From assembly GCF_003334305.1 (NCBI RefSeq), contig NZ_QOWS01000004.1: a DNA stretch of 64,000 nucleotides; one strand, given 5' to 3'. The stretch comes from Escherichia coli. Its GTDB lineage: Bacteria; Pseudomonadota; Gammaproteobacteria; Enterobacterales; Enterobacteriaceae. This document shows, one piece after another, positions 48,264 to 55,923 of the stretch (its first letter is position 1; each line of letters starts with the position of its first letter). The translations under genes were made by a program, and so were the position numbers. The notes under the pieces were generated by a model, which saw only the letters and a list, made by a program, of their open reading frames with translations, did not search any database and was not told the DNA's origin.

Positions 48264-49343
48264 TTACAGAACGTCGATCGCGTTCAGTTCCTGGAATGCT
48301 TTTTCCAGACGAGCGATCATCGAAGTCTGACCGGCACGCAGCCATACGCGCGGATCGTAGTATTTCTTGTTCGGCTGATCTTCGCCTTTCGGGTTACCCA
48401 GCTGACCCTGCAGATAAGCTTCGTTCGCTTTGTAGTAGTTCAGAACGCCTTCCCAGGTTGCCCATTGGGTATCGGTATCGATGTTCATTTTCACTACGCC
48501 GTAGCTTACGGAGTCTTTGATTTCCTGAGCAGTAGAACCGGAACCACCGTGGAATACGAAGTTCAGGCTGTTGTGCGGCAGGTTGTGTTTCTTAGAAACA
48601 TATTCCTGAGAATCACGCAGGATGGTCGGAGTCAGAACCACGTTACCCGGCTTGTAAACACCGTGTACGTTACCGAAGGACGCAGCGATGGTGAAACGCG
48701 GGCTGATTTTGCTCAGCTCGGTGTATGCGTAATCAACGTCTTCCGGCTGGGTGTACAGTGCAGAAGCGTCCATGTGGCTGTTGTCCACGCCGTCTTCTTC
48801 ACCACCGGTGCAACCCAGTTCGATTTCCAGAGTCATGCCGATTTTGGACATACGCTCCAGGTATTTAGAGCAGATTTCGATGTTCTCTTGCAGAGATTCT
48901 TCAGACAGGTCGATCATGTGAGAAGAGAACAGCGGCTTACCGGTAGCTGCGAAGTGTTTTTCACCCGCGTCCAGCAGACCGTCGATCCACGGCAGCAGTT
49001 TCTTCGCGCAGTGGTCAGTGTGCAGGATAACCGGAACACCATAATGTTCAGCCATCTGGTGAACGTGATGCGCACCAGAGATCGCGCCCAGGATAGCAGC
49101 ACCCTGCGGAACGTCAGATTTCACGCCTTTACCAGCGATAAAGGAAGCACCACCGTTGGAGAACTGAACGATAACCGGCGCTTTAACTTTAGCAGCAGTT
49201 TCCAGTACGGCGTTGATGGAGTCAGTACCGACGCAGTTTACTGCTGGCAGTGCGAAGTTGTTTTCTTTTGCTACCTGGAAAACTTTCTGTACGTCATCAC
49301 CAGTGATTACGCCAGGTTTTACGAAATCAAAAATCTTAGACAT
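48264..49343 (-). CDS. fbaA: Fructose-bisphosphate aldolase class II
   Basis: ORF 48264..49427; start MSKIFDFVKPG at 49343 gives 359 aa. Confidence 0.93.
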   Translation of the reverse strand: MSKIFDFVKPGVITGDDVQKVFQVAKENNFALPAVNCVGTDSINAVLETAAKVKAPVIVQFSNGGASFIAGKGVKSDVPQGAAILGAISGAHHVHQMAEHYGVPVILHTDHCAKKLLPWIDGLLDAGEKHFAATGKPLFSSHMIDLSEESLQENIEICSKYLERMSKIGMTLEIELGCTGGEEDGVDNSHMDASALYTQPEDVDYAYTELSKISPRFTIAASFGNVHGVYKPGNVVLTPTILRDSQEYVSKKHNLPHNSLNFVFHGGSGSTAQEIKDSVSYGVVKMNIDTDTQWATWEGVLNYYKANEAYLQGQLGNPKGEDQPNKKYYDPRVWLRAGQTSMIARLEKAFQELNAIDVL

Positions 49344-49557: not shown

Positions 49558-50721
49558 TTACTTCTTAGCGCGCTCTTCGAGCATCGCTACTGCAGGCAGT
49601 ACTTTACCTTCCACGAATTCGAGGAATGCGCCGCCGCCAGTGGAGATGTAGGAGATTTTGTCAGCAATGCCGAACAGGTCGATTGCTGCCAGAGTGTCGC
49701 CGCCGCCAGCGATGGAGAACGCTTCGCTGTCTGCGATAGCGTTAGCCACGATTTCAGTACCTTTGCGGAAGTTCGGGAATTCGAACACGCCAACCGGACC
49801 GTTCCACAGAATGGTTTTCGCATTCTTCAGGATTTCAGCCAGTTCCTGAGCGGAAGCATCACCGATATCCAGGATCTGCTCGTCAGCTTTCACATCGTTA
49901 ACAGATTTCAGGGTAGCCGGTGCAGTTTCAGAGAACTCGGTTGCTACGCGAACATCAGACGGAACCGGGATGTTGCAGGTGGTCAGCAGACGTTTAGCTT
50001 CGTCAACCAGGTCAGCTTCGTACAGGGATTTACCCACATCGTGGCCTTGTGCCGCGATAAAGGTGTTAGCGATACCACCACCAACAATCAGCTGGTCAGC
50101 GATTTTAGACAAGGAGTCCAGAACGGTCAGTTTGGTAGATACTTTAGAACCACCAACGATAGCCACCATCGGGCGAGCTGGTTCTTTCAGTGCTTTACCC
50201 AGCGCGTCCAGTTCAGCTGCCAGCAGCGGGCCTGCGCACGCAACGTCAGCGAATTTACCGATACCGTGAGTAGAAGCCTGCGCGCGGTGAGCAGTACCGA
50301 ATGCGTCCATTACGAACACGTCACACAGTGCAGCGTATTTTTTGGACAGGGTTTCGTCGTCTTTCTTCTCGCCTTTGTTGAAGCGAACGTTTTCCAGAAC
50401 AACCAGTTCACCTTCAGCAACGTCAACGCCGTCGAGGTAATCTTTAACCAGGCGAACCGGGTTAGACAGTTTGTCTTTCAGGTAGTTAACAACCGGCAGC
50501 AGAGAGAATTCTTCGTTGTACTCGCCTTCGGTAGGACGACCCAGGTGGGAAGTTACCATCACTTTTGCGCCTTGTTTCAGGGCCAGTTCGATGGTCGGCA
50601 GAGAAGCACGGATACGCGCGTCGCTGGTTACTTTCCCGTCTTTTACTGGTACGTTCAGATCCGCACGGATAAATACACGTTTCCCAGCAAGATCCAGATC
50701 GGTCATCTTAATTACAGACAT
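49558..50721 (-). CDS. pgk: Phosphoglycerate kinase
   Basis: ORF 49558..50784; start [10 protein letters not shown] at 50721 gives 387 aa. Confidence 0.93.
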
Positions 50722-50770: not shown

Positions 50771-51790
50771 TTACCTGAAAGCAACAGTAGCCATAGCTAA
50801 CGTCGTGTCGAGCATTCGGTTAGCAAAGCCCCATTCGTTATCGCACCAGACCAACGTTTTGATCAGGTGTGCGCCACTGACCCGGGTTTGGGTGCCATCG
50901 ACAATGGCACTGTGCGGATCGTGGTTAAAATCTACAGAGACCAACGGCAATTCCGTATAGTCAACTATACCATGAAATGCACCTTGTGCTGCTTTTTGCA
51001 GCAACAGGTTGACTTCATTGGCTTTTACAGGTTTCTTCACCGTCACGCTTAAATCGATTGCCGTCACATTTATGGTTGGCACACGTACCGCAATCGCTTC
51101 AAAGCGATCGTTAAATTGCGGAAAAAATCGTGTGATACCGGCGGCCAGTTTAGTATCGACCGGAATGATCGACTGGCTGGCTGCCCGGGTGCGACGCAGG
51201 TCAGGATGGTATGCATCAATAACCTGTTGATCGTGCATGGCGGAGTGAATTGTGGTCACAGTGCCGGACTCAATACCGTACGCATCATCTAACAATTTGA
51301 TGACGGGAATTATGCAATTCGTGGTACAGGAAGCGTTAGAAACGATGCGGTGTTCCGCACGAAGTTGATCCTGATTGACGCCGTAAACAACGGTCGCGTC
51401 GAGATCGTTACTGCCAGGATGTGAAAAGAGCACTTTTTTGGCCCCGGCGGCAATATGCGCTTCGCCATGCTCGCGGGAGCCATATACGCCGGTGCAGTCG
51501 AGGACTACATCAACGCCAAGTTCACGCCAGGGGAGCGATTGCAGTGAACGTTCATGCAATACGCGGATGGCGTCATCACCAACAAAAAGTTGATCGCGTT
51601 CCTGTCGTACTTCCCATGCAAAACGGCCATGGCTGGTGTCATATTTCAACAAATGCGCCATGCCCGCAGCATCCGCCAGTTCGTTGATTGCCACCACGGT
51701 AATTTCCGCCCGGCGTCCGGATTCATACAAAGCACGAACCACATTACGCCCGATGCGACCGAAGCCATTTATCGCTACGCGTACGGTCAT
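50771..51790 (-). CDS. epd: D-erythrose-4-phosphate dehydrogenase
   Basis: ORF 50771..51874; start [15 protein letters not shown] at 51790 gives 339 aa; GAPDH-family NAD motif NGFGRIGR. Confidence 0.92.
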
Positions 51791-51911
51791 AGATCTCCTG
51801 CAAGGTTTTCCCTGAGCAAATTTGCCAGACAGAGTAATCCAGCAAATCGTCCGGGGAAACCTTACCTGTCGCAAACTGCGACTGATTGGTTAATTGTCGA
51901 ACATTTAATCG

Positions 51912-51927
51912 ACTGAAACGCTTCAGC
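51912..51927. promoter_or_regulatory. Candidate Cra (FruR) operator upstream of epd
   Basis: ACTGAAACGCTTCAGC is a near-perfect palindrome of the Cra half-site TGAAAC, about 120 bp upstream of the epd start. Confidence 0.4.
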
Positions 51928-52017
51928 TAGGATAAGCGAAACGTGGAATAAAAGGAATGATTGTCCAGTCAAAGAAAGCAATTATCTGACTTACGTCACG
52001 TTTTCAGCCCCGCCCCT

Positions 52018-52033
52018 GTGGAATTTATTCCAC
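52018..52033. promoter_or_regulatory. Perfect 16-bp palindrome in the epd / ECF-operon divergent control region
   Basis: GTGGAAT-TT-ATTCCAC; an additional GTGGAATAAAAGGAATG half-site-like repeat lies at 51943-51959. Confidence 0.35.
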
Positions 52034-52161
52034 TTTGCAGAATCACGAATAAGCGTAGCAAAATCTTTTCGTTGTGCCGTCACAAACCCTGACTTATATC
52101 AGAATATGACTGATGCAGCGTCGATATTATCCGCAATACGTCCGAGTTTCGGAGTACTCCA

Positions 52162-52593
52162 ATGATGACATTGCCCTACCCATATTCTTCCTCCGCACGC
52201 TTTTACGCACTGCGCCTCCTCCCCGGGCAGGAAGTTTTTTCCCAGCTACACGCTTTTGCACAGCAGCATCAACTTCATGCCGCCTGGATTGCAGGCTGTA
52301 CCGGTAGCCTGACTGACGTCGCCTTGCGCTATGCCGGGCAAGAAGGCACCACGCTCCTGAACGGTACATTCGAAGTGATCTCACTAAACGGCACGCTGGA
52401 ACAGAGTGGTGAGCATCTTCATCTCTGCGTTTCCGATCCACACGGCACGATGCTTGGCGGTCATATGATGCCCGGCTGTACCGTGCGGACCACGCTTGAA
52501 CTGGTGATCGGTAGCCTTGAGGAACTGGCGTTTAGCCGCCAACCTTGCGCGCTTTCTGGTTACGACGAGTTGCATATTTCCCCCGTTAAATAA
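52162..52593 (+). CDS. Small cytoplasmic protein, tentatively PPC/DUF296-like
   Basis: 143-aa ORF with GGAG RBS 8 nt upstream; no TM segments; pattern LRLxPGxEV...GSL..V.LRYAG....LNGTFEVISLNGTL...HLHL.VSD..G...GGHMMPGCTV.TTLELVI resembles the DUF296 fold. No match to a K-12 protein that I know. Confidence 0.55.
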   Translation: MMTLPYPYSSSARFYALRLLPGQEVFSQLHAFAQQHQLHAAWIAGCTGSLTDVALRYAGQEGTTLLNGTFEVISLNGTLEQSGEHLHLCVSDPHGTMLGGHMMPGCTVRTTLELVIGSLEELAFSRQPCALSGYDELHISPVK

Positions 52594-52615
52594 CTACTTT
52601 CAAAGAGGTTTTCTT

Positions 52616-53194
52616 ATGGCGCGTAGCCACTTTTCCAGTCAGGCACTGGTGTTGATCGTTATATCTATCGCCATCAATATGATCGGCGGGCAACTGGCCA
52701 GCATGGTCAAATTACCTATATTTCTCGACTCCATCGGCACACTTATTAGCGCGGTACTGCTTGGTCCGGTGATCGGAATGCTGACCGGCTTACTGACCAA
52801 TTTACTCTGGGGATTGCTGACCAACCCGATCGCCGCCGCATTTGCACCCGTCGCGATGGTCATCGGCCTGGTCGCCGGTTGCCTGGCGCGAGCGGGTTGG
52901 TTTCGCACCCTGCCAAAAGTCGTTGTCAGCGGCGTGATTATTACGCTTGCGGTAACGGTCGTCGCTGTACCGCTGCGTACTGCGCTGTTCGGCGGTGTCA
53001 CCGGTAGCGGAGCCGATTTGTTCGTTGCCTGGATGCACTCGATGGGGCAAAACCTGGTGGAGTCGGTGGCGATTACGGTGATAGGCGCGAACCTGGTCGA
53101 TAAAATTCTTACAGCGGTGATTGTCTGGCTTTTACTGCGCCAGCTGCCGATTCGCACCACGCGCCATTTTCCGGCAATGGCTGCCGTGCGCTAA
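52616..53194 (+). CDS. ECF transporter substrate-capture (S) component, substrate unknown
   Basis: ORF 52517..53194; start MARSHF at 52616 behind an AAAGAGG RBS gives 192 aa with about six hydrophobic helices; its stop overlaps the next start (TAAATG). Confidence 0.6.
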   Translation: MARSHFSSQALVLIVISIAINMIGGQLASMVKLPIFLDSIGTLISAVLLGPVIGMLTGLLTNLLWGLLTNPIAAAFAPVAMVIGLVAGCLARAGWFRTLPKVVVSGVIITLAVTVVAVPLRTALFGGVTGSGADLFVAWMHSMGQNLVESVAITVIGANLVDKILTAVIVWLLLRQLPIRTTRHFPAMAAVR

Positions 53195-53902
53195 ATGCAT
53201 CCATTTACCTCATTAACACTGTGGGCATTGGCGGCCTGCACCACGCTTATCCTGCCCGCGCAGACCATTTTGCCAATCTATAGCGCGGCGACCTTTTTCT
53301 GCCTTATTGCGCTAAAGGCCACGCGGCGGCGGGCAAAATATGTCGTCTGGCTGATGTTCTCGCTGGGAGCCGGGCTGTGGCTGGTACACGGTGGCTGGCT
53401 ACCAGAATGGCTAAGCGGCACGCCACGCTCGCCAGAACGGTGGTCGCATGCTATTACGCTCTGGTTGCGGATTCTGGCGATTGTTTCAACCTCACAGTTG
53501 TGGATGCAGTACGTCCCCGTGCAATGTTTTATTCGCGCTCTGTTTGCTTCTCGCCTGCCGCCAGGCGTCGCTTATCTGTTTGCCGGGCCGTTATTGGTCG
53601 TTGAGCAGTTAAAACGGCAATTAGCGATTATTCATGAAGCGCAGCGTGCCCGCGGCGTGCCGCTGGATGAGGGCTGGTATCAGCGTTTACGTGCGATGCC
53701 CGCGTTAATTATTCCGCTAACACACAATGCGCTTAACGATCTGGCTGTCCGTGGTGCGGCGCTGGATATGCGGGCATTTCGGATCCACAACCGACGAACA
53801 ACGTTGTGGGCACCAGCCGATAGCACCCTACAACGCGTAGCGCGTTACACCATGATCTTGCTGATGCTGACAGAATTCGGAGCGTGGATATGGTTACGTT
53901 AG
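53195..53902 (+). CDS. ECF transporter transmembrane (T) component, EcfT/CbiQ family
   Basis: 235-aa polytopic protein with two Ala-Arg-Gly coupling-helix motifs (EAQRARGVP, LAVRGAAL). Confidence 0.65.
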   Translation: MHPFTSLTLWALAACTTLILPAQTILPIYSAATFFCLIALKATRRRAKYVVWLMFSLGAGLWLVHGGWLPEWLSGTPRSPERWSHAITLWLRILAIVSTSQLWMQYVPVQCFIRALFASRLPPGVAYLFAGPLLVVEQLKRQLAIIHEAQRARGVPLDEGWYQRLRAMPALIIPLTHNALNDLAVRGAALDMRAFRIHNRRTTLWAPADSTLQRVARYTMILLMLTEFGAWIWLR

Positions 53903-54567
53903 AACAGTTCCGTTATTGCCCGACACACTCAACGCATCCTCCGTTCTGTTATGACTTTCACTATGTCAAACCGGGGATGGTCGCCATCTTTGGTGACAAC
54001 GGCAGTGGCAAAAGTACGCTGGCACAGCTGATGGCGGGCTGGTATCCGGACTTTCTGCCAGGAGAGATAACAGGCACGGGGACGCTCCTCGGTACGCCCA
54101 TTGGGCATCTCCCGCTTAATGAACAATCCGCCACCATCCAGCTCGTCCAGCAATCGCCCTATTTGCAGCTCTCCGGCTGTACCTTTAGCGTGGAAGAAGA
54201 AGTTGCCTTTGGGCCAGAAAATCTGTGTCTTGCTGAAGCAGAGATTTCGGCGCGGATTGATGCCGCCCTGACTCTGACCGAGTGCCAGCCGTTGCGCCAT
54301 CGTCACCCGGCAACACTCTCCGGTGGAGAGACACAGCGCGTGGTCATCGCCTGCGCCATCGCGATGCAGCCAAAGCTCTTAATTCTTGATGAAGCCTTTA
54401 GCCGCCTGACTCCGCAGGCCAGCGAAATGCTGTTGCAGCGCTTACAACACTGGGCGTTTGAACGTGGTTCGCTGATTATTCTTTTTGAACGTCATCGCAC
54501 ACCTTTCCTGAACTACTGCCAGCAAGCGTGGCAATTGAAAAACGGAGCGCTCCAGCCACTATGTTAA
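53884..54567 (+). CDS. ECF transporter ATPase (A) component
   Basis: 227-aa ORF with Walker A GDNGSGKST, signature LSGGETQR and Walker B LLILDEA; its start overlaps the T-component 3' end. Confidence 0.75.
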   Translation: MDMVTLEQFRYCPTHSTHPPFCYDFHYVKPGMVAIFGDNGSGKSTLAQLMAGWYPDFLPGEITGTGTLLGTPIGHLPLNEQSATIQLVQQSPYLQLSGCTFSVEEEVAFGPENLCLAEAEISARIDAALTLTECQPLRHRHPATLSGGETQRVVIACAIAMQPKLLILDEAFSRLTPQASEMLLQRLQHWAFERGSLIILFERHRTPFLNYCQQAWQLKNGALQPLC

Positions 54568-55238
54568 CGTTAAATAAGATATCTTATCGCTGGCCTGGCG
54601 CGGCAACGGATTGTCTTTGCGACATTTCTCTGCAACTCAAACAAGGTGAATGGTTGGCGCTGACCGGCGACAATGGCGCGGGAAAATCGACGCTGTTACG
54701 AGTAATGGCAGGTCTTCTTACGCCCACAGCCGGTACGGTTATGCTGCAACAACAGGCGATGAAAAACCTGAAAAACCGCCAGCGCGCGGCAAAGGTTGGC
54801 GTACTGTTTCAGGAAGCGGAAAACCAACTTTTTCACAGCACCGTCGCTGACGAGATCGCATTTGGTTTGAAACTGCAAAAATGCCCGGCGGATGAAATCA
54901 CTCAACGTACCCATGCTGCCCTGCAATGTTGTCAGTTAGCAGACACTGCCAACGCGCACCCGTTGGATCTGCATAGTGCGCAGCGACGGATGGTCGCCGT
55001 CGCCTGCCTGGAAGCACTCTCTCCGCCACTATTGCTGCTGGACGAGCCGAGTCGGGATTTTGACGAAAATTGGTTGAGCGTGTTTGAAAGCTGGCTGGAG
55101 AAGTGCCGCCAGCGAGGCACGAGCGTCGTAGCAATCAGTCATGACGCCGCATTTACCCGGCGTCATTTCTCTCGTGTGGTGCGACTGGAAGATGGTCTAA
55201 TCAGGAACGTTAATCCACCAGACGATATTCACCCGTAG
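54561..55238 (+). CDS. ECF transporter ATPase (A') component with degenerate signature motif
   Basis: ORF 54528..55238; likely start MLTLNKISYR at 54561 (ATGTTAA overlap with the upstream stop). Walker A GDNGAGKST, Walker B LLLLDEP, H-loop SHD; the signature position reads LHSAQRR instead of LSGGQ. Confidence 0.7.
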   Translation: MLTLNKISYRWPGAATDCLCDISLQLKQGEWLALTGDNGAGKSTLLRVMAGLLTPTAGTVMLQQQAMKNLKNRQRAAKVGVLFQEAENQLFHSTVADEIAFGLKLQKCPADEITQRTHAALQCCQLADTANAHPLDLHSAQRRMVAVACLEALSPPLLLLDEPSRDFDENWLSVFESWLEKCRQRGTSVVAISHDAAFTRRHFSRVVRLEDGLIRNVNPPDDIHP

Positions 55239-55923
55239 CGGTCATCATTAAGGTCAAATTTGCAGGCAGACTCTCTTCCAGCACCCGGCGAACATTCGGC
55301 CCGTCGGTACGGTCATAAAAAGCTTCTGCGTCTGCCAGCGATACCCCTCCCGCCAGCTTGCGCCCTACCAGTCGTTCCCGCAACGCAGTAGCTGGCGCGT
55401 TGATAAAGATCGAGAAATCACAAAATTGCGCAAGCTGGCACCACTTCTCGTCGTCCAGCAACAACCAGTTTCCTTCGACGATGACGAGTGGTGCGGTAAC
55501 GTGCAACGCATCTTCAACAGGATCATGCTTTTGTCGATCATACTGCGGCCACGTACAATCCCCTTCCACGACCTGGCACAGATTTTCCGCCAGTTTCGCA
55601 ACGTCAAATGTCTCTGGTGCGCCTTTGAAGGGGCGCAATTGATGCGCATCCAGCCAGCTATTGTAATGGTGAAAACCATCCATCGGGAGCGTCTGGATAG
55701 CGGGTAATTCAGGGTCTTGTTGCGCGAGATATTCCCAGAAGGTAGTTAAGGTAGATTTACCCGTCCCCGGCGGAGCGCAAAGAAAAACCACCGTACGTCG
55801 CTGCGGACTTACCGTCTGTAAGGCCGCCAGCATACGCAGCAACGGTTTATGCACGCGTTCTATCTCTTCATCATGGTACTGCACTTGCACGTTCAGCCCA
55901 TTCACCGTTAATTCAATTTTCAC
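55210..55923 (-). CDS. yggC: P-loop kinase-like protein YggC
   Basis: 237-aa ORF with Walker A APPGTGKST; its 3' end overlaps the convergent ECF A' gene by 29 bp. Confidence 0.88.
   Translation of the reverse strand: MKIELTVNGLNVQVQYHDEEIERVHKPLLRMLAALQTVSPQRRTVVFLCAPPGTGKSTLTTFWEYLAQQDPELPAIQTLPMDGFHHYNSWLDAHQLRPFKGAPETFDVAKLAENLCQVVEGDCTWPQYDRQKHDPVEDALHVTAPLVIVEGNWLLLDDEKWCQLAQFCDFSIFINAPATALRERLVGRKLAGGVSLADAEAFYDRTDGPNVRRVLEESLPANLTLMMTATGEYRLVD

Follow-up and report, generated by a model that had tools for sequence, protein, structure and literature searches.

Control over the E. coli operon epd-pgk-fbaA by Cra (FruR) is established, and its repression by Cra was reported in a ChIP-exo study (PMC5888115), where Cra was located over both the -10 box and the transcription start site (TSS) of epd, and CRP at a class I position upstream. 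Both Cra repression and CRP activation of epd were confirmed there by RNA polymerase ChIP-exo, and in vivo Cra occupancy at epd is published only for K-12. The structure of the operon was described in PMC2759082; the epd TSS, originally from Bardey 2005, was confirmed in the same work by 5'RACE and pyrosequencing at 132 nt before the ATG, the promoter sequence is given in Table 1 as ACATTCCTTTTATTCCACGTTTCGCTTATCCTAGCTGAA, ending in ...TTATCCTAGCTGAA, and FruR and Crp are named as its regulators, the role of Cra being only minor under the glucose conditions used. The epd gene is also a CRP target by genomic SELEX (PMC3105977). In 2021 a portable Cra operator, the 18-mer AGCTGAAGCGTTTCAGTC, was derived 'from epd gene': placed directly after pBAD it made the activity 3.7-fold lower, this effect needs a promoter-proximal position, and a comparison of the wild type with a delta-cra strain was offered as evidence of active Cra repression of the engineered promoter (PMC8363753). 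The physiological effector of Cra, F1P or FBP, is disputed (PMC10760178).

Here we compare with these data the epd locus of the window, that is, of the whole 64,000-nucleotide stretch of E. coli DNA that was analyzed. The cra gene itself lies far from the epd locus in K-12 and falls outside the window. The sequence ACTGAAACGCTTCAGC occurs exactly at positions 51912-51927 on the plus strand; read along the strand of epd, its reverse complement is GCTGAAGCGTTTCAGT. The sequence is situated 122-137 bp 5' of the epd start codon (ATG, 51788-51790, minus strand). We consider this box to be the Cra (FruR) operator of the operon epd-pgk-fbaA at its promoter P0, with a probability of about 95%. The locus contains the following features.

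50771-51790, minus strand: epd (annotation of the identical record NZ_AP018808.1, ORF list and K-12 annotation)
49558-50721, minus strand: pgk, a downstream gene under epd P0 (annotation of NZ_AP018808.1)
48264-49343, minus strand: fbaA, likewise a downstream gene under epd P0 (annotation of NZ_AP018808.1)
51791-51922, minus strand: 5' leader of epd, 132 nt, its first 11 nt being the transcribed half of the Cra box
51912-51927, minus strand: very probable Cra (FruR) operator of epd P0 (motif, published 18-mer and conservation)
51911-51928, minus strand: the published 18-mer AGCTGAAGCGTTTCAGTC, exactly identical to the element of PMC8363753
51922, minus strand: TSS of epd P0, an A, mapped by identity from PMC2759082
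51929-51934, minus strand: putative -10 hexamer TATCCT, at -12 to -7 by the spacing counted from the TSS, adjoining the Cra box
51985-52000, minus strand: CRP site CGTGACGTAAGTCAGA, centred at -70.5, a class I distance, predicted from the sequence and with a putative exact assignment
51960-52011, no strand: graded boundary of the variable segment (allele comparison)
52162-55238, plus strand: variable cluster, divergent from epd, with the gene of a PPC-domain DNA-binding protein and the ECF transporter components S, T, A and A'

For pgk and fbaA, the window coordinates were obtained by applying the locus-to-window offset of 39699 to the annotated ones.

The box is a 16-base imperfect palindrome, CTGAAaCGcTTCAG, with the half-sites TGAAAC and TGAAGC and CG in the centre. 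Against the published Cra motif gcTGAAtCGaTTCAgc, to which the later motif of PMC5888115, ctgaAtCGaTtcag, is near-identical, it agrees in 10/10 positions of the high-information core and in 13/16 positions overall, with the central CG present; all three departures from the idealised 16-mer fall outside the core. It also matches the loose classical consensus RSTGAAWCSNTHHW on the plus strand without mismatch. Taken alone, the latter match is not significant, since the window holds two matches to this consensus against 0.63 expected, and two or more were reached in 12 of 100 shuffles. The 64 kb window has a single occurrence of the high-information core TGAANCGNTTCA, for which arithmetic yields a chance expectation of approximately 0.06 per window and approximately 4e-4 per 370-bp epd upstream region. 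No second operator, for instance one that could serve looping, was found in the epd operon region at 9/10 core positions or better, and elsewhere in the window sites of that quality occur only at 45296 and 4664.

The promoter sequence of PMC2759082 is unchanged in the window, and therefore the TSS of epd P0 is at position 51922 and the box (51912-51927) extends from -5 to +11. The hexamer TATCCT next to it is inferred to be the -10 element. A consensus scan of 51700-52250 revealed no canonical sigma-70 promoter and no credible -35 element at epd P0; the corresponding entry of PMC2759082 for the epd promoter is 'no predictions'. Both the empty scan and the missing -35 element are consistent with a weak, CRP-dependent promoter. 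The predicted CRP site, which in the K-12 allele is TGTGATGTGAGTCAGA, is kept as TGTGA-N6-TCAGA/TCATA across Enterobacterales. Thus the Cra operator proposed upstream of epd in the preliminary description, together with its palindromic pattern of TGAAAC type, is supported by the 10/10 core match, the identity to K-12, the published 18-mer and the placement at the mapped promoter. The curated position of the site, which we reconstructed from three secondary sources, is in agreement with this place, and the sequence is that of the published epd Cra 18-mer. Converted from the K-12 epd coordinates, the box would correspond to NC_000913.3 3073813-3073828, with its centre at +3.5.

Conservation was considered both within E. 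coli and between species. Identity to K-12 is 100% over 51698-51959, from inside epd to -37, so that in the K-12 alignment of the epd upstream region the box is identical; among 5426 complete E. coli genomes, 5374 show 100% identity over 71 nt surrounding it. Epd loci were collected from 80 species, 79 of them with usable upstream sequence. The full 10/10 core (GCTGAA-N-CGTTTCA) was found upstream of epd in 72 of these 79 loci, usually 120-210 bp before the ATG, and there was no other match to it in the 845,749 bases of the epd loci; it is absent from the loci of Vibrionaceae, Plesiomonas, Tolumonas, Budvicia, and Rosenbergiella. In the 69 loci anchored on the box, its columns are 90-100% identical except for positions 7 and 15, compared with 30-60% in the flanks. 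Position 15 is occasionally G or T, and position 7 varies freely (G, C, T, or A); the latter is the low-information position left free by the published Cra motif. The leader downstream of the box diverges between species, and the box does not. The fixed position and the conservation of the core upstream of epd are the decisive evidence against chance.

Two explanations that dispense with Cra can be weighed against these data. That the box is a chance palindrome without function would agree with the two consensus matches in the window and their recurrence in 12 of 100 shuffles, since the degenerate consensus is not rare; the retention of the box by 72 of 79 species at one fixed position, the zero background matches, the location at the promoter and the literature leave a negligible chance for it. 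Alternatively, the box could be conserved for a reason other than Cra, as an initially transcribed sequence, as the leader 5' end pairing with the Shine-Dalgarno region, or as a target of another LacI-family regulator. The 132-nt leader indeed folds far better than shuffled sequences (-47.9 kcal/mol, z = -4.5), and in the minimum free energy structure nucleotides +4 to +8 (GUUUC, within the box) pair with the GGAGA of the ribosome-binding region. Within Escherichia and Citrobacter the leader is nearly invariant. However, the consensus fold of the leaders of 18 species has no conserved structure, yet the first 11 nt are fixed, and the untranscribed half of the box (-5 to -1) is as invariant as the transcribed one. 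Variation in the box is confined to a position that is free in the Cra motif, the isolated 18-mer confers cra-dependent repression on a foreign promoter (PMC8363753), and Cra occupies this site in vivo (PMC5888115). We therefore regard such an explanation as highly unlikely. Conservation of the box as RNA was dropped on the consensus fold of the 18 leaders, and no Rfam family matched 51600-52300 at E<=1. A secondary RNA role would add to the role of the box as a Cra operator, not replace it.

The preliminary description had placed the interest of the site in its vicinity to an island junction, and the segment beside epd is indeed variable. A 551-bp query from the window spans the boundary and has 100% identity with ordinary E. 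coli chromosomes. Its coverage reached 80% or more in 3330 of 5426 complete E. coli genomes, so that the segment is present in approximately 61% and absent in approximately 39% of them; in the remaining genomes homology does not continue beyond query positions 292-312. NZ_AP018808.1, the identical record, has the cluster between epd and yggC. The S component of the ECF transporter in the cluster most resembles the CD3073-type family, with a score under the curated cutoff. An alignment of three cluster-bearing and five cluster-less alleles demonstrated that the region from -37 to the ATG is invariant in both allele types, except for one SNP in ST131. The first SNP relative to K-12 is at 51960 (-38), 33 bp from the box, and is unlinked to the presence of the cluster; cluster-linked differences begin at approximately 51999/52000 (-77/-78), which is 72 bp from the box and falls on the outermost base of the CRP site, upstream of its core, and recognisable homology to the cluster-less alleles ends at approximately 52011 (-89). 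On the other side, the 3' part of yggC is strongly diverged in the K-12-type allele, with roughly 70% identity over 55279-55456.

Presence/absence polymorphism is thus the one property of a mobile island that was observed here. The annotation of the cluster contains no integrase, transposase or tRNA target, and no pair of direct repeats brackets 51960-55456. The GC content of the cluster, 54-56%, is only mildly raised over the 50-51% or so of the flanking epd-pgk-fbaA side and stays within the local range, 56% being reached at 56500-57500. Nor is the distribution patchy: E. albertii, three Citrobacter, Superficieibacter electus and Pseudescherichia vulneris carry the cluster at this same position, the identities of the PPC protein fall with phylogenetic distance (90, 79-83, 73 and 70%), and the divergent intergenic region is alignable throughout the cluster-carrying genera. 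The same place and the alignable intergenic region across genera point to the cluster as an old resident, which was probably lost or replaced in K-12-type strains; this and the diverged 3' part of yggC suggest that the K-12-type difference is an old allelic replacement or deletion rather than a recent insertion. The polarity of the gain or loss is not fully settled, because in one Enterobacter metagenome-assembled genome (MAG) epd directly adjoins yggC.

For the regulation of epd these observations leave little room for an effect of the cluster on the operator. If acquisition of the PPC/ECF genes had displaced, rewired or created the Cra control of epd, the site would matter as an island border, and both the polymorphism among complete genomes and an allele boundary inside the epd control region (-38 to -89) speak for this. 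Against it, the two allele types do not differ in the box, the -10 hexamer, the TSS or the leader, species that lack such a cluster retain the box across the order, the cluster-linked boundary lies 72 bp from the box, and the segment is syntenic across genera and has none of the mobility hallmarks. The probability of such an event is, in our estimate, very small, and the emphasis on the island junction was not sustained. Since the variable segment leaves the operator untouched, any strain differences in the control of epd-pgk-fbaA should come from the CRP site or from further upstream.

Several sequence elements of this upstream region deserve separate mention. Cluster-bearing E. coli and E. 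albertii have the predicted epd CRP site in the form CGTGA...TCAGA; cluster-less E. coli and the majority of the other Enterobacterales sampled have TGTGA...TCAGA, the difference lying in the outer base at 52000 (-78). With the CGTGA variant, activation of epd-pgk-fbaA by CRP could be slightly weaker in approximately 60% of E. coli. In conservation across the 69 species, the repeat ATTCC-N4-ATTCC at 51945-51958 (-36 to -23 of epd P0) ranks second to the Cra box, and it occupies the place of the missing -35 element; an inverted partner of it, GTGGAATAAA, is located at 52024-52036 (-102 to -114), and GGAATAAA is retained even in the K-12-type allele.

The divergent control region between epd and the PPC gene is 371 bp long, and the Cra box is 235 bp upstream of the PPC ATG. 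On the side of the PPC gene, this region contains a second CRP-like repeat, CTGACTTATATCA, at 52089-52101, of the same repeat family as the epd CRP site, and, at 52069-52082, the perfect inverted repeat TTGTGccgtCACAA of 5 bp. Both elements (52066-52101) fall in blocks that are conserved across the cluster-carrying genera and probably serve to control the PPC/ECF operon.

A near-copy of the epd box, GCTTAACCGTTTCAGT, is present at 45296-45311, with 9/10 core positions and 14/16 positions identical to the epd box. It lies 24-39 bp upstream of the ATG of srsR/ygfI (45272, minus strand) and downstream of yggE, and is identical in K-12; by arithmetic, chance sites as close to the epd 16-mer are expected at approximately 0.03 per 64 kb. 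No link of Cra to srsR is given in the SrsR paper or in Kim 2018. It is conceivable that the Cra box and the CRP-like sites (51985-52000 and 52089-52101) tie the PPC/ECF transporter to glycolytic flux, that the TGTGA-to-CGTGA change shifts the balance between Cra and CRP at epd-pgk-fbaA in approximately 60% of E. coli, and that the srsR/ygfI near-copy is an unrecorded Cra target; taken jointly, these proposals are rather unlikely.

The operator at epd P0 suggests a simple mechanism. A Cra dimer bound to the box would overlap +1 and abut the -10 hexamer, and by this overlap and contact RNA polymerase would be excluded or stalled, or formation of the open complex blocked. At low glycolytic flux Cra would repress the operon, overriding cAMP-CRP activation from -70.5; when fructose-1-phosphate (disputedly also fructose-1,6-bisphosphate) rises, Cra would leave the DNA and the operon would be expressed. 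Occupancy, the direction of regulation and transplantability of the operator are taken from the literature; sequence, position, identity to K-12 and conservation were computed here. Cra regulation is expected to hold in the present strain too, and this extension is safe because of the 100% identity to K-12 over 51698-51959.

Overall, what was re-identified here is a regulatory site of textbook standing in central carbon metabolism: the operator is already known, has been mapped in K-12 and has served synthetic biology as a part, so the assignment is correct but ordinary. As a real operator recognized from sequence alone, the site can be used as a positive control. Its closest relative is the operator of epd P0 in K-12, which has the same sequence and position and, starting within epd and reaching to -37, flanks of 100% identity; its relation to the TSS and the -10 element agrees with the ChIP-exo description (PMC5888115), and there is no difference at the operator itself. 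Upstream of -38 the present strain differs from K-12 in having the cluster-type allele, with the CRP half-site CGTGA instead of TGTGA, and the divergent PPC/ECF cluster here replaces the yggC 3' flank. The distal and proximal operators of fruB (GCTGAATCGTTTCAA and TTGAAACGTTTCAGC; PMC10760178) and that of gapA (PMC5888115), which overlap or follow their promoters, share the TGAA-N-CG-N-TTCA core palindrome with epd, and their logic is also the same, in that a site at or downstream of the start leads to repression. In contrast to fruB with its two operators, the epd promoter has a single box, and repression at epd works against a class I CRP activator, unlike at fruB and gapA, the other repressing Cra operators named here. 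At aceBA the same protein and motif are used, but the Cra sites are upstream of the promoter and activating (PMC5888115), whereas the epd box overlaps +1; this activating geometry would be relevant to the epd box only if it also served the divergent PPC gene.
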